64,000 nt of DNA, taken from Promethearchaeota archaeon. Its GTDB lineage: Archaea > Asgardarchaeota > Lokiarchaeia > Sigyniarchaeales > SOKP01. Below the pieces are notes generated by a model. That model did not search any database. It saw only the letters and a program-made list of their open reading frames with translations, and had not been told where the DNA came from. The position numbers were made by a program, and so were the translations under genes. Positions within the stretch are counted from its first letter, which is position 1, and every line of letters begins with the position of its first letter. Positions 35,101 through 62,373 of the stretch are shown piece by piece. The stretch spans positions 138,353-202,352 of the forward strand of contig JAHLWS010000070.1 of NCBI GenBank assembly GCA_019057795.1, in the 5' to 3' direction.

Positions 35101-35844
35101 TTAAGGAATTAAATTATTTTTTTTTAAAAACCAATTATTAATCAAGAATTTTTGAGAAAGGTTCTTTCGAGGAAGATAATGATTATTAATAGTAGATTTC
35201 GGCACCCACATCTCCTTATTATTGAATTCAATTAAAATAGCCTTTTCTGTTTCTCCCAAGATTATTCCATCGACATTACTCAAGTCTTTTAGGATATCTC
35301 CTCGAAGTGCTATGCCAGAAAAAAGGTCGTTTTTATAACAATTAGATTCGTCATTAATTTCTTCAATTTTATTCCTATTACGAAGTTCCTCTTGTTTGAG
35401 TTTAATTACTTTATTTTCGTTGCTAGTTCTAGTTCTTTTTGGTATCGTCGAATAAACTATTTTTTCCTTAAGTAAATGAATCAATAATAACCTTAAAATT
35501 TCCGTTTGAGCAAGATTAAGCATTTTAGAATAAGTTCCAATATTAATCCACAATATGTTTGCATCTTCATCTTCCCAACTAAAAGATAACGAAGTTTTCT
35601 TATCCTTGTAAATATGATGACTTTGCCAATTTAGAGTTTGACGATTTAATACTCGCAAGATCATAACGATCTCTTCTAACGAAATTTTAATTATTTTACC
35701 TTCATTGGTAGAGGGTTTTTCCCAAATTCCATCAGGTTTTTTTTTAATGCAATGGATAAAAATAAAGGGGTCTAAGCTCGAGGGACTACTCACTATCATC
35801 CCGGTGTTCTGTCCGAAAAAGCTTTTTGAATGTGAATCCACCAT
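35101..35844 (-). CDS. Two-domain hypothetical protein (possible Whirly/PC4-like N-domain; C-domain with ETEKA..WVPKS)
   Basis: Long ATG ORF; fold call is inference only. Confidence 0.7.
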   Translation of the reverse strand: MVDSHSKSFFGQNTGMIVSSPSSLDPFIFIHCIKKKPDGIWEKPSTNEGKIIKISLEEIVMILRVLNRQTLNWQSHHIYKDKKTSLSFSWEDEDANILWINIGTYSKMLNLAQTEILRLLLIHLLKEKIVYSTIPKRTRTSNENKVIKLKQEELRNRNKIEEINDESNCYKNDLFSGIALRGDILKDLSNVDGIILGETEKAILIEFNNKEMWVPKSTINNHYLPRKNLSQKFLINNWFLKKNNLIP

Positions 35845-35999
35845 TTTTTTAAAGAGTTGTGTTTATTTTAAATAATTGTAAGATAATATATTTTGAACTA
35901 AAAAAATACCACTAATCTCCATAAAAATGATAAAAAATTAAAAGATAAAATAATTATATGATCTATAAAAAAGAGTTATTCTCGTAAGAAAAAAACCTT

Positions 36000-36106
36000 A
36001 GCGGGGTGGGCTAGCCTGGTTTATGCCGCAGGGCTCATAACCCTGAGAACACTGGTTCAAAAGATTTTGATTGATTTACAACAATCTGAGATTCCAGTCC
36101 CCGCTA
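36000..36106 (+). tRNA. Initiator tRNA-Met(CAT) with a 31-nt intron in the T-loop (36062..36092, position 59/60)
   Basis: A1-U72 acceptor AGCGGGG/CCCCGCT, three G-C pairs in the anticodon stem, CAT anticodon; perfect BHB restores T-loop TTCAAAT. Confidence 0.95.
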
Positions 36107-36274
36107 TTTTATTTCATTTTTTATCTTAAATTGATAAAATCCTTAAAAATGTAAAATGAATTAAAATAAAGAGAAAATTAATTATATTTAACAATTAATA
36201 ATCACGCCTATATTTCATAAAATTTGTTAATATAGTAATCGATTGTATAATAGAAATTTCACATGAGTTAAATT

Positions 36275-37003
36275 ATGAATGGAACTCAATCTTATGAGTT
36301 TTTTCCAGCAATTCGTTGTTGGGTTAAACATCTTTTAGAAGGGAAGTATAACGCTGAAGAAAAGTCAATATTCACGATCTTTGGAGCTCTTAGAAAAATT
36401 CGACTTGTCGCAACAATTACTAATAGAGAAGATTTCGTTAGTAATACATCAACAGGGGAATTAAGCACCAATTTAAGATTCGAACTGGATGATGGAACGG
36501 GTTTAATCTCTGCTGTCAAGTGGGATGTTGATTTAGATAAATATAACGATTTAAATCAAGGAGATATTGTAGATATTTTAGGAAGAGTGGGTTTTTATGG
36601 TGATACCGTTCAAATTAGTAATATCAAATTGATAAAAAAAGTGAAAGATCCAAATTATATCTTACTACGAGACTCTGAAATAATAAAAAAAATTAAATCT
36701 GGAGATATCCACGAGATTCCTATTGATTTTGAAACGGAGGAAGAATTCTCTTTTGATAATACTTCTGATGAAATTCGTATAGACAAAATATTTGGAGAAG
36801 ATCAGCCTTCAGAAGTTGATAAACTTAAAGAAAAGATTTTTTCGATAATATATGAATATTCTCAAGACGGAAATGGTATAAGTCTAAAAGAATTACAATT
36901 AAAGTTGCAGATTCCCGAAAATAAACTGAGGACCTATATTAACGATTTAGTGATGGAATCAAGAATTTATCCAACAGAAGAAAATATATATCAAAGTTAC
37001 TAA
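36275..37003 (+). CDS. RPA2/RPA32-like protein (OB fold plus C-terminal winged helix)
   Basis: 'FELDDGTG.I', acidic linker, WH 'GISLKEL...INDLVMESRIY'. Confidence 0.82.
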   Translation: MNGTQSYEFFPAIRCWVKHLLEGKYNAEEKSIFTIFGALRKIRLVATITNREDFVSNTSTGELSTNLRFELDDGTGLISAVKWDVDLDKYNDLNQGDIVDILGRVGFYGDTVQISNIKLIKKVKDPNYILLRDSEIIKKIKSGDIHEIPIDFETEEEFSFDNTSDEIRIDKIFGEDQPSEVDKLKEKIFSIIYEYSQDGNGISLKELQLKLQIPENKLRTYINDLVMESRIYPTEENIYQSY

Positions 37004-50474: not shown

Positions 50475-50587
50475 TAAATTCAAAGACTTATATTATTTAA
50501 TAGAATTAAAAAAATGCTGTAAGCTATATTATATAATTCTCAATTTAAATAAAATTATAAATTCATTGTTTAATTGGTGAATAATCG

Positions 50588-51400
50588 ATTTCTGGTTATA
50601 TAGGCAAAAGAATTAGATTAGAACGAATTTTTAATAGGGAAACAAATAAGACGATCATAGTTCCTATGGACCATGGATTAACTGTAGGGCCTATTAAAGG
50701 AATTAAAAGAAGTTTAGGAGAAATGGTAAATAAAATAGCATTAGGGGGCGCAAATGCCGTTTTAGGGCATATTGGGATTCCATTATACGCCCATAGAGGA
50801 TATGGTCCAGATATTGGCTTAATTTTACATTTATCTGGTTCAACCTCTCTAAGTCCCAAGTCAAATTATAAAGTTTTAGTAAATAATGTATTAGATGCAG
50901 TAAAATTAGGAGCCGATGGTGTATCTTTGCATATTAATATTGGAACAAAGGCAGATCCAGAAATGCTAGAGATTCTAGGAGCAGTTTCACGTGAATGCCG
51001 AGAGTTTGGAATGCCCCTTTTGGCTATGATGTATCCTAGAGGGGAAAATATCGAAAACGAACACGATGTTGAGGTCGTTAAAATAGCAGTAAGAGTCGCT
51101 GCGGAACTAGGGGCAGATATTGTGAAAACTAATTGGACGGGAGACCCAGATTCTTTTAATGAAGTAATTGAGGGGTGCATGGCACCAGTAATTATCGCGG
51201 GAGGGGTTAAGGCGGGGATTAAAGAACTTTTGGAAATAACTAAGCAATCCATAGATGTTGGAGGCGCTGGAGTTGCCTATGGAAGAAATGTATTTCAAGC
51301 GGATAATCCTACAAAAGTTGTGAAAGCGCTTTATCTAGTTGTTCACAAAAATTATGAAGTAGAAGAAGCCATTAAAGAAACAAACATAAAAGGTCTATAA
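50588..51400 (+). CDS. 2-amino-3,7-dideoxy-D-threo-hept-6-ulosonate synthase / class I (DhnA) aldolase; probable ATT start at 50588
   Basis: MDHG, 'MYPRG', 'AAELGADIVKT', 'IAGG', 'GRNVFQ'; conserved N-terminus GKRIRLERIFNRETNKTIIVP lies upstream of the first ATG. Confidence 0.88.
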   Translation: MSGYIGKRIRLERIFNRETNKTIIVPMDHGLTVGPIKGIKRSLGEMVNKIALGGANAVLGHIGIPLYAHRGYGPDIGLILHLSGSTSLSPKSNYKVLVNNVLDAVKLGADGVSLHINIGTKADPEMLEILGAVSRECREFGMPLLAMMYPRGENIENEHDVEVVKIAVRVAAELGADIVKTNWTGDPDSFNEVIEGCMAPVIIAGGVKAGIKELLEITKQSIDVGGAGVAYGRNVFQADNPTKVVKALYLVVHKNYEVEEAIKETNIKGL

Positions 51401-59801: not shown

Positions 59802-60737
59802 ATGAGGCATGTTGATATTGTTGGGTTAGGCGAAGTGGTTTTAGATTGGGTTGCCGAAATATCACACTTTCCAAAACCTGATGAAAAGATTGATGCATTA
59901 AGCGAGAATTATTTTTCGGGCGGTGTTACAGCTAATTATTTAGTAGCAGTAGCTAGATTGGGGGGCTTATGCGGATTTATAGGTGCTGTTGGAGATGATT
60001 CGTATGGTCATTTCTTGGTTGATGATTTCGTTAAAGAAAAGGTAGACATAACTTTTCTTGTAAAGAAACCAAATAAAAAAACGCCTGTTAATTTTATATT
60101 TATTGCTAAAGGGGAAAAGTCAATAATTCAATCTCCTCACATGCAAACAACAAAAATAGATGTTAATGATTTAAATGAATCTTTTATAGCAGAATCTAAG
60201 CTATTACATACTACAATGATTCATCAGGAAGTTACTGAAAAAGCCATTGAAATTGCTAAAAGAAATGATGTTAGAATTAGTATTGATTTAGAATCTCAAA
60301 TTGCGCAAAGAGGTTGGGAAAATTTAAAAAATCTACTTTTAAATGCTGATATTTTAATTCCAAATAAAGAAGGGGCAAAATCAATAACGAACAGCGATAG
60401 TCCTGAAAAAGCAGCTAATATTTTAGTGAAAAAAGGGATACCTATTGTAATTATTACATTAGGAAGTAAGGGGGTGTTAATAACCACAAATAACTTTCAA
60501 AAAAGGATACCTACTTACGATATTAAATATATTATTGATACTACAGGGGCAGGAGATACATTCAATGGTGCGTTTTCTCTAGCTTACTGGATTAAAGGCT
60601 GGGATTTGGAGAAAGCCTGTAAATACGCTAATGCGGCAGCTTCTTTGAAGATCCAAAAATTAGGTGCGAGATCTGGTATGCCTAAAGAAACGGAGCTACT
60701 AGATTTCTTAAAGAAGAATGATGATACTTTCTTATAA
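59802..60737 (+). CDS. PfkB/ribokinase-family carbohydrate kinase
   Basis: 'GG..AN...A.ARLG', 'PN..', 'ITLG..G', 'DTTGAGDTF'. Confidence 0.93.
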   Translation: MRHVDIVGLGEVVLDWVAEISHFPKPDEKIDALSENYFSGGVTANYLVAVARLGGLCGFIGAVGDDSYGHFLVDDFVKEKVDITFLVKKPNKKTPVNFIFIAKGEKSIIQSPHMQTTKIDVNDLNESFIAESKLLHTTMIHQEVTEKAIEIAKRNDVRISIDLESQIAQRGWENLKNLLLNADILIPNKEGAKSITNSDSPEKAANILVKKGIPIVIITLGSKGVLITTNNFQKRIPTYDIKYIIDTTGAGDTFNGAFSLAYWIKGWDLEKACKYANAAASLKIQKLGARSGMPKETELLDFLKKNDDTFL

Positions 60738-60764: not shown

Positions 60765-61202
60765 TTATGAATAAATTACACTTATATTTCTAAAATTCTC
60801 GCTACAGATTAGTACATCTAACTTTTCTAATATCATTTCTGATGTAAGTTGAGTATACTGTTGATTAAATGGCCAAATACCAATTAGAACATCTCCTAAC
60901 TTTTTTACATTACCAATTAAAAAACCTTCCTTTTTTCCATCTGATAAATATGTGTAGAGAATAACGATATAATAATTAAAATTATAATTAATAGTTACAT
61001 CTCCACTTTTTATTACTTCTCGAATGTTTTGAAAATTTATTACATTTTTACGCTTTTGAGTTAATATTTTTAGAGACGAAAAATATTGAGAAGGAATATT
61101 AATCGGTTTATCAGAGATTATGCTTTTAAAAGTTAATGAAAGCGATTTATTTTCATCTCCTTTAGTCCCCTTAAAAATTACCTTGTAAAATATCGCACTC
61201 AT
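60765..61202 (-). CDS. Hypothetical protein
   Basis: 145-aa ATG ORF, no motif recognised. Confidence 0.65.
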   Translation of the reverse strand: MSAIFYKVIFKGTKGDENKSLSLTFKSIISDKPINIPSQYFSSLKILTQKRKNVINFQNIREVIKSGDVTINYNFNYYIVILYTYLSDGKKEGFLIGNVKKLGDVLIGIWPFNQQYTQLTSEMILEKLDVLICSENFRNISVIYS

Positions 61203-61270
61203 CGAAATCTAATTTATCTCTTTTTTAATATTAAAATTAAAATAGAATAAAAAAAATGCAAATGAACTTA

Positions 61271-61618
61271 TTAATATTTTTTATATGGTTTCTTCATCAT
61301 TCCCTGTCGAATGATAATATTTTCTTCAGGGAATCCCAAGTCAATTAAAAATTTTTTCAATTTGAACTTGTGGTCGCCTTGGAGTTCGATTAAATTTCCC
61401 CTAACAGTTCCTCCAGAAGCACATTTCTTTTTGGCTTGTGTAAGGATATCCTTTAAATTAGCGTCTATATTTCCTTCGAAGGTGATAACTGTAACCACAC
61501 GCCCCCATTTCCTTCGATCGTTAGAGATAATAATTTGTTGTTCATCTGCGCTTAAACTATCGCATATACATAGGTCTTTCGGAAAACTACATACCGGACA
61601 AATGTCTTCTTCTTTAAT
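61271..61618 (-). CDS. sui1: Translation initiation factor aIF1 (SUI1); probable ATT start at 61618
   Basis: 'KKKCASGGTV', 'IELQGDH'; the frame extends upstream through the Zn knuckle IKEEDICPVCSFPKDLCICD and 'RRKWGRVVTVI'. Confidence 0.92.
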   Translation of the reverse strand: MKEEDICPVCSFPKDLCICDSLSADEQQIIISNDRRKWGRVVTVITFEGNIDANLKDILTQAKKKCASGGTVRGNLIELQGDHKFKLKKFLIDLGFPEENIIIRQGMMKKPYKKY

Positions 61619-61848
61619 ACTCCTTTTTCACAACCTTTATTATTGAAACTTATTAAAATACAGTACTAAAAAATAATAGAACTAAATCTTATAAAAACCT
61701 TTTTTTATTTTAGTTTTGTATAATTTTAAAAATGTTAAGTTTTTATAAGGAATTGATTAATTTGGTTTTTAGGTTTTATTATTAACAATATTGTAAAAAC
61801 AAATTCTTATTTATTATAATTAAAAAAAAATGATTCATGTATTAAAAA

Positions 61849-62373
61849 ATGATGAGTTCATGGATTTTTAAAGTGATCGTAGCAGGAGAGGGTGGTGTGG
61901 GAAAAACTGCTATGGTGACTAGATATTGCACAGGAAAATTTGAAGAAGGCTATAAGATGACTATAGGTGCGGGATTCCACACAAAGTCAGAAGTCCTTGA
62001 CACAGGAGAGTCCGTAAAAATGCAATTATGGGACTTCGCAGGAGAAAAACGCTTCCGAGAGCTTTTACCAGACTATTGTAGGGGGGCTAGTGGAGCACTG
62101 ATTTGCTTTGATATAACGGATTACGACACTTTCAGAGAAATTCCAGGTTGGCTAAAAATTATTCGCAAAAAAGCAGGTTTTGTACCTATAATTCTTATGG
62201 GTATGAAGTGGGATTTATCGAACCACGAAGTTGATTTCGAAATCGCGAATGAATACGCCCAAAATGCTAAATGCAATCAATGCGTTTTCACTTCTTCAAA
62301 AGAAAATATAAATGTAAACGAATCGTTTCAAGCCATGGCAAAGTGGCTTATATTTTATGCTAATCAAGCGTAG
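61849..62373 (+). CDS. Rab-like small GTPase with divergent G3/G4
   Basis: GEGGVGKT, 'YKMTIGAGF', WDFAGE, MKWD, TSSK. Confidence 0.9.
   Translation: MMSSWIFKVIVAGEGGVGKTAMVTRYCTGKFEEGYKMTIGAGFHTKSEVLDTGESVKMQLWDFAGEKRFRELLPDYCRGASGALICFDITDYDTFREIPGWLKIIRKKAGFVPIILMGMKWDLSNHEVDFEIANEYAQNAKCNQCVFTSSKENINVNESFQAMAKWLIFYANQA

Follow-up and report, generated by a model that had tools for sequence, protein, structure and literature searches.

In the window, by which we mean the whole 64,000-nucleotide stretch of Loki-type Asgard archaeal DNA that was analysed, the gene for the initiation factor aIF1 (SUI1) appears to begin with an AUU codon, and we interpret this weak start as part of a self-limitation of aIF1 synthesis that is maintained by selection. 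We put the probability of this combined reading at about 0.6; the feedback in it is inferred and no experiment supports it. Translation very likely begins at AUU 61618 and would yield a protein of 115 aa, an assignment made from sequence alone, without an N-terminal peptide, a ribosome footprint or a mapped 5' end. As re-defined, the CDS occupies 61274-61618 on the minus strand (115 codons, M-KEED-ICPVC...), with the ATT initiation codon at 61616-61618 and the TAA stop at 61273-61271. The evidence for this codon is comparative, ATT or ATC being constant in 46 aligned sequences of the family.

The aIF1 frame is open on the minus strand between a TGA at 61630-61628 and the TAA. Along this strand, a TTG (61633-61631) is followed by the TGA, by AAA AGG AGT, by the ATT (61618-61616), by AAA GAA GAA GAC and by a second ATT, after which TGT CCG GTA TGT leads on to the stop. 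No ATG, GTG or TTG occurs in this frame of the minus-strand sequence between the TGA and a GTG at 61498-61496. The ORF list starts the gene at that GTG and thereby gives an aIF1 of only 75 aa without its zinc knuckle. The sequence-only reading had extended the frame upstream of GTG 61498 through the knuckle to the TGA, and all of its coordinates hold. Its further claims that canonical starts are lacking and that ATT 61618 is the first plausible codon were confirmed in the sequence, with the same layout in 50 of 57 family genomes, and the in-frame TTG that it placed immediately before the TGA is present.

The protein (P0001) matches the Pfam SUI1 domain (PF01253) over residues 29-100 (61328-61543, minus strand) with 55.5 bits against a cut-off of 25.5, so that it belongs to this domain family, and the gene is present in a single copy in the genome. 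The N-terminal zinc knuckle, CPVC-x6-CIC (61562-61600, minus strand), is of the archaeal aIF1 type and lies upstream of the GTG chosen by the ORF caller. M. jannaschii aIF1 (PDB 4mo0) matched with an E value of 3.9e-23, and 5jb3 and 5jbh also matched; the fold can be assigned clearly from this match in the PDB. In the alignment with 4mo0, CPVC-x6-CIC falls on CPRC-x6-CVC, which identifies it as the zinc knuckle, and residue 3 of 4mo0 falls on the Asp preceding Ile-Cys; four residues precede the first Cys in the M. jannaschii protein and five in the aIF1 here. Among relatives the knuckle is constrained at the protein level, with synonymous changes present. The N-terminal peptide expected from the AUU start is (M)KEEDICPVCSFPK, and that of relatives is (M)KDDDICxICSFPK.

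The sequence-only reading had also raised the alternative that one spurious A in the A5 run (61628-61624) hides an in-frame GTG, which failed, as DNA contigs from other studies and RNA-library contigs show A5 and no indel. The contigs from two other DNA studies span 61527-61743 with zero indels, one of them (X5) being identical to the window at a depth of 242 and another (X3) coming from a related strain. Two contigs from metatranscriptome libraries are likewise free of indels (X15, 61436-61693; X16, 61501-61666). The RNA evidence consists of assembled contigs only, from which neither transcript ends nor strand can be read, and 61150-61435 is without RNA cover. In 16 other species of the genus, the arrangement of TGA, nine bases and ATT is preserved and the nine bases differ, with variants that include AAAAAGAGT, AGAAAGAAC, ATAAAAAGT and AACAAGAGT. 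Since relatives hold this frame relation although the spacer bases differ, a homopolymer miscall is excluded. The aIF1 gene of S. solfataricus was formerly annotated as frameshifted, and this turned out to be a sequencing error (PMC8211752); an explanation of that kind is excluded here.

The 75-aa product from GTG 61498 is what ORF callers give, and database entries seem to speak for a short protein. These entries (P0002, P0004-P0031, P0045, P0080) are inconsistent and many of them are 69-91 aa long; two inspected JGI/NCBI calls, of 74 and 84 aa, lack the zinc knuckle. The NCBI pipeline itself puts the start at ATT in relatives, whose proteins begin with MKDDDIC and bear the bacterial name YciH. 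One further entry begins with MWKKSIKDDD, which fits a call that may have read the TGA as W, as we infer. The knuckle, which a start at GTG 61498 would leave out, is constrained at the protein level and belongs to the solved aIF1 structures, and the same frame relation is found in independent assemblies and in 50 relatives. That the AUU start is an artefact, with a masked in-frame GTG or a true product of 75 aa, is therefore barely credible. Gene finders restricted to ATG, GTG and TTG remove the zinc knuckle from aIF1 and shorten dozens of other proteins in these genomes.

To survey the family, 121 genomes were searched; the gene was found in 103 and its 5' end was read in 57. In 50 of the 57, the interval from the upstream in-frame stop to the first Cys contains no ATG, GTG or TTG, and the open stretch before this Cys is mostly just 7-10 codons long. 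Six genomes carry an in-frame GTG four codons upstream, within the SD-like element, and a single one has a plausible canonical GTG. The recurrence of the layout in 50 of 57 genomes is far beyond chance. The position of the ATT or ATC is fixed at six codons before the first Cys. Conservation statistics were computed on the 46 family sequences that align without gaps, the consensus of which is AAAGGTTGTGA, nine bases and ATT AAA GA. The ATT is constant in them save for an ATC in three g15 genomes. Over codons +2 to +5 after the ATT, the entropies at the three codon positions are 0.28, 0.29 and 1.33, so variation is nearly confined to third positions; in the spacer, tabulated in the aIF1 frame, they are 1.17, 0.94 and 1.37, with all three positions varying. 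Furthermore, 14 of the 46 sequences contain an additional in-frame TAA, TAG or TGA within the spacer. As codon periodicity sets in right after the ATT, coding starts at this codon, neither before it nor much after it.

The case that would have spoken against an AUU start, an ATG, GTG or TTG at this position in close relatives, was not met: none of them carries one, and ATT or ATC is retained across nine genera of the family, canonical codons appearing only at the distance of family or order. Sister families of the order have TTG, GTG or ATG where the ATT aligns (for example TTG CCG AAA GAT, GTG CCA AAA AAA GAT and ATG CCC AAG), with GGAGTGA or GGAGAAG 8-10 nt ahead of this codon. Judging by the complete genomes of relatives that were sampled, cultured strains of the Loki type have TTG. 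Two genera of the order have ATA at the homologous codon and no canonical alternative. Some g1 and g21 genomes of the family also hold a second aIF1 copy (L127-L131) of 56-63% identity, for which the choice between a paralogue and bin contamination is unresolved; these copies have a perfect GAGGTGA, an 8-nt spacer and ATT or ATA followed by AAA GA., and the GTG of their SD is in frame.

Besides AUU 61618, the open stretch has just one near-cognate codon, the second ATT (61603-61601), which is the Ile codon just before the first Cys. Initiation there would give M-CPVC..., and NCBI annotates one protein of a relative in this way, beginning with MCPLCSF. This ATT lies 24 nt from the SD, beyond the range used in the genome. 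The four codons that precede it vary in a coding manner, at third positions and with acidic residues retained, and known aIF1 proteins carry residues ahead of the Ile. We thus consider the second ATT a very improbable start in comparison to AUU 61618.

Upstream of AUU 61618 lies a conserved SD-like element, AAAGGTTGTGA (61628-61638, minus strand), which holds the in-frame TGA, the TTG and the GTG, and the two are separated by a non-coding spacer of 9 nt, AAAAGGAGT (61619-61627, minus strand), whose length is fixed and whose sequence is free; among relatives it is constant in length, without indels. The organism's own 16S rRNA ends in ...GGATCACCTCCT at its 3' end. Seven of nine positions of AGGUUGUGA (61636-61628) pair with this anti-SD (AGG..GTGA), with two central mismatches. 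Within the family, AGGTTGTGA occurs in 37 of 46 sequences with entropies of 0.3-0.8, and the variants are AGGTAGTGA, CCGTGA and AGGAAGGAA. In this genome, SD motifs are over-represented at distances of 4-10 nt ahead of starts and most frequent at 6-7 nt; the aligned spacing of 9 nt, which belongs to an enriched long tail, accounts for 45 cases against 112 at the peak of 6 nt. We infer that AGGUUGUGA may act as the SD of aIF1, as an element split by mismatches and placed at a long spacing.

Further upstream, a block TTATAAGATTT..TCTATTATTTTTTAG (61661-61697, minus strand) is conserved in several genera, 60-80 nt upstream. In it, a TATA-like stretch TTTTTATAAGA (61687-61697, minus strand) is followed by the conserved TCTATTATTTTTTAG; the conservation is seen in the alignment and the promoter role is inferred. 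The block probably comprises the aIF1 promoter, whose TATA-like element would be at 61697-61687, and the start of the leader. From the promoter geometry that is typical of archaea, transcription is predicted to start near 61666, and the SD would then lie within a leader of about 48 nt. RNA-library contigs extend to 61693-61718; the end of one of them at 61666 is only a weak hint at a transcript start. An RNA structure hiding the start was not supported by single-sequence folding (z = -0.9), and alignment folding of 30 relatives gave 0 pairs of conserved structure around the start.

The out-of-frame micro-ORF described in the sequence-only reading, GTG AAA AAG GAG TAT TAA, does exist at 61614-61631 on the minus strand, and its stop, TAA 61616-61614, overlaps the AUU. 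Ribosomes could in principle start at GTG 61631, translate five codons, terminate at this TAA and reinitiate on the overlapping AUU, and both elements recur in the family, the GTG in 42 of 46 sequences and the stop overlapping the start codon in 37 of 46. However, the GTG is itself part of the SD-like element, and no separate SD precedes it at a usable distance. It does not occur in g19, and in g15, where the start codon is ATC instead of ATT, the stop disappears. Moreover, the second aIF1 copies with 8-nt spacing have this GTG in frame and hence lack such a uORF. Because the GTGA belongs to the SD and the ATT precedes an AAx Lys codon, both the micro-ORF and the TTG-TGA pair are best regarded as by-products. 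The micro-ORF is probably no more than that; a role in reinitiation is not excluded and seems improbable to us.

A recoding event would be another way into the aIF1 frame, whether by a +1 frameshift in the style of prfB or antizyme at TAT TAA A, by slippage on the A-run or by read-through of the TGA from the TTG. In this genome, an A5 run does follow the GTG, a 0-frame stop lies at the junction and AGGAG stands ahead of it. A superficial likeness to the autoregulatory +1 frameshift of prfB (RF2), limited to this one genome, thus extends to a short upstream frame, a stop by an SD-like AGGAG and a gene for a translation factor. Relatives conserve neither a shift site nor the A-run or the AGGAG (AGAAAGAAC, AACAAGAGT and ATAAAAAGT are among the variants), and the comparison with prfB was rejected. 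In the aIF1 frame, which alone was tabulated, the spacer is without codon periodicity, some genera have TAG, TCG, CCG or AAG instead of the TTG, the extra in-frame stops after the TGA in 14 of 46 sequences rule out read-through, and the RNA-library contigs contain no indel. Recoding is accordingly highly improbable. As a candidate in its own right, a programmed +1 frameshift did not qualify, given the free spacer, the upstream GTG without an SD, the absence of this GTG in g19 and the loss of the stop with ATC. Read-through of the TGA, or its reassignment to W, was also rejected: 345 of 2512 long ORFs end in TGA, and relatives have a further TAA or TAG after it.

To see how an AUU start fits this organism, we scanned the genome for in-frame codons that follow a stop and stand at least 10 codons ahead of the first canonical start, with an SD 5-mer upstream of them at an aligned spacing of 5-9 nt. 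Behind an SD, the one-mismatch codons ATT (53 observed, 27 expected), ATA (29 and 19), ATC (13 and 8), CTG (6 and 1.6) and ACG (11 and 3.2) are enriched, and AAG (6 and 8.2) and AGG (2 and 3.2) are not. Twenty near-cognate candidates were examined against Pfam. For at least 12 of the 20, the domain begins at profile positions 1-4, 2-21 residues from the near-cognate codon (eleven within 15), and 16-117 codons before any canonical start. The domains are DAO (CTG), AFOR_N (ACG), DNA_methylase (ATT), GD_AH (ATA), Ras (ACG), Gtr1_RagA (ATA), IF-2B (ATA), PFL-like (ATT), Abhydrolase_1 (ATT), Creatinase_N (ACG), FAA_hydrolase (ATT) and Fer4 (ATT). Near-cognate loci in the genome (G000) include CTG at C15 (-) 40464, ACG at C42 (-) 27407 and C27 (-) 13659, ATT at C69 (+) 103164 and C79 (-) 28393, and ATA at C42 (+) 42354, C82 (-) 38566 and C49 (-) 42008. 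In these near-cognate genes GGTGA stands mostly 6 nt ahead of the codon. Near-cognate initiation behind a strong GGTGA, predicted for dozens of genes, is on this evidence a general trait of the organism.

NCBI translation table 11 lists ATT, ATC, ATA and CTG among its alternative starts, and pcnB of E. coli starts at AUU. The frequency here, with dozens of genes including that of uS4, seems much above that in model bacteria and archaea. The principle would be that of SD-led near-cognate starts in general, in which the SD positions a one-mismatch codon for the initiator tRNA, as in many genes here. Because other genes have domains beginning right after an SD-led ATT, ATA, CTG or ACG, initiation at AUU is feasible in this organism. 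By the same token, as near-cognate starts are common in the genome, the AUU start alone is no proof of regulation and is possibly just tolerated. The SD of aIF1 is imperfect and distant, whereas the other near-cognate genes have a perfect GGTGA at optimal spacing. Elsewhere in the window, a gene for a DeoC-family aldolase (50576-51397, plus strand) has an ATT at 50588, 7 nt after GGTGA; position 1 of the Pfam DeoC profile corresponds to residue 22 and the first ATG lies 26 codons in, and this is likely a second ATT start within the window. ARAGORN found no tRNA at 35800-36300 of the window.

As a control gene we used that of ribosomal protein uS4 (G000:C5:39799-40299, minus strand), which begins with ATC GGA GAC CCA (M-G-D-P) where relatives read ATG GGA GAT CCA. 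Within the family, only this genome and those of two sister species show the ATC start; ATG is found in 27 of 30 genomes. Across 40 genomes sampled from the phylum, uS4 starts with ATG in 32, TTG in 4, GTG in 2 and ACG in 2, and the two ACG cases have an in-frame GTG nearby. Near-cognate aIF1 starts occur in at least five other families of the phylum sample (f6, f9, f11, f16 and f17). They comprise CTG in f9 (L093, L095, L100, L102) and f6 (L112-L113), closely preceded by an in-frame stop, ATA nine bases after AGGAGG in f11 (L085) and f17 (L106-L107), and ATA in one of three f16 genomes (L114). AGGAG-type SDs stand ahead of these codons, close relatives have GTG, TTG or ATG there, and in many others of the phylum sample aIF1 starts with GTG or TTG. 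Counting our own order, the predicted near-cognate starts on aIF1 amount to at least six origins, a number not corrected for kinship.

These data bear on the possibility that AUU is the start without regulatory meaning, either an ATG or TTG that drifted to ATT under the tolerance of this organism or a codon that just keeps output low. Dozens of genes here start at ATT, ATA, ATC, CTG or ACG, and uS4 itself went from ATG to ATC inside the genus. The near-cognate start is shallow in uS4 (3 of 30 family genomes) and, by contrast, fixed in aIF1 over nine genera without reversion, and weak aIF1 starts arose repeatedly in other families whose uS4 begins with ATG. Within the family the weak aIF1 codon never reverted, although a single substitution gives ATG. 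Weak starts are thus found on aIF1 in 50 of 57 family genomes and in five further families, versus 3 of 30 and one ambiguous family for uS4, again without correction for kinship. This contrast is suggestive of selection for a weak start on aIF1 specifically; relatives are not independent, and the contrast is not a statistical one. We regard an AUU start devoid of regulation as doubtful without dismissing it. AUU is not unique to aIF1, and what is special is the depth and frequency of its retention.

In the self-limitation that we favour, the aIF1 mRNA would be leadered, and its imperfect but conserved SD AGGUUGUGA would position the 30S subunit so that the initiator tRNA can pair with AUU 61618-61616. 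Initiation at this AUU, 9 nt downstream of the SD, would produce the 115-aa aIF1 with its N-terminal zinc knuckle. If this factor destabilises initiation complexes on non-AUG codons, more aIF1 would lead to less initiation at its own AUU and less aIF1 to more, which would constitute a negative feedback. In S. solfataricus, aIF1 blocks 30S complexes on AUU and permits those on AUG (Hasenohrl et al. 2009, via PMC4705826). Work on P. abyssi ties aIF1 to start-site selection and recalls the feedback loop of eIF1 (PMC6237735). If the aIF1 here disfavours AUU at all, as in Sulfolobus, the feedback follows automatically; the argument therefore leans on the biochemistry of a distant archaeon. Judged by its sequence and by comparison, the aIF1 initiation site is of the kind that the factor disfavours. 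While the start-codon assignment, its conservation and its recurrence are borne out by these comparisons, the discrimination against AUU by this aIF1 and the resulting feedback are inferred.

The closest bacterial counterpart in expected logic is infC, encoding IF3, which has an AUU start under translational autocontrol that is abolished by changing AUU to AUG (Butler et al. 1987, as cited in PMC4705826). In both cases, an SD-led AUU opens the gene for a factor that rejects non-canonical starts, this weak codon is conserved, and a rise of the factor is expected to lower initiation at its own AUU. The two proteins are unrelated and bind at similar places on the small subunit. Autocontrol was established genetically for infC and is only inferred for aIF1; moreover, the SD of aIF1 is imperfect and distant, and AUU-type starts in this genome are not limited to a few genes. 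In eukaryotes, eIF1 is autoregulated via the poor context of its AUG (Ivanov et al. 2010, as cited in PMC4705826 and PMC6237735). eIF1 and aIF1 are orthologues (Pfam SUI1), each with a suboptimal initiation site of the kind that its protein discriminates against. For eIF1 this is an AUG in a weak Kozak context during scanning, whereas for aIF1 it is a near-cognate codon behind an SD, and there is no experiment.

With infC and eIF1, a start-codon proofreader limits itself in bacteria and in eukaryotes, and an AUU, AUA or CUG start retained on aIF1 across many Asgard lineages would fill in the missing archaeal case. We infer that the AUU start of aIF1 represents an archaeal form of a regulatory principle that is already known, in a lineage where near-cognate starts are unusually frequent, and that self-limitation is likely. 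A full-text literature search, which left most subscription journals outside its scope, yielded no account of an archaeal aIF1 gene with a near-cognate start and none of general near-cognate starts in Asgard archaea. As a more speculative extension, which we consider possible but unlikely, the level of aIF1 in Loki-type and other Asgard archaea might serve as a global rheostat, its AUU, AUA or CUG start setting a homeostatic and permissive stringency of start selection and co-regulating the near-cognate genes. If this were true, a near-cognate set of perhaps 1-2% of the genome (uS4, small GTPases, metabolic enzymes) would follow the aIF1 level, and the feedback of eukaryotic eIF1 and near-cognate initiation would descend from, or parallel, an archaeal state.

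As for the neighbourhood of the gene, a 145-aa ORF without a Pfam match lies directly downstream of aIF1 (60765-61202, minus strand), a PfkB-family sugar kinase is encoded at 59802-60737 (plus strand), and a gene for a Ras-family small GTPase is divergently oriented at 61849-62373 (plus strand).
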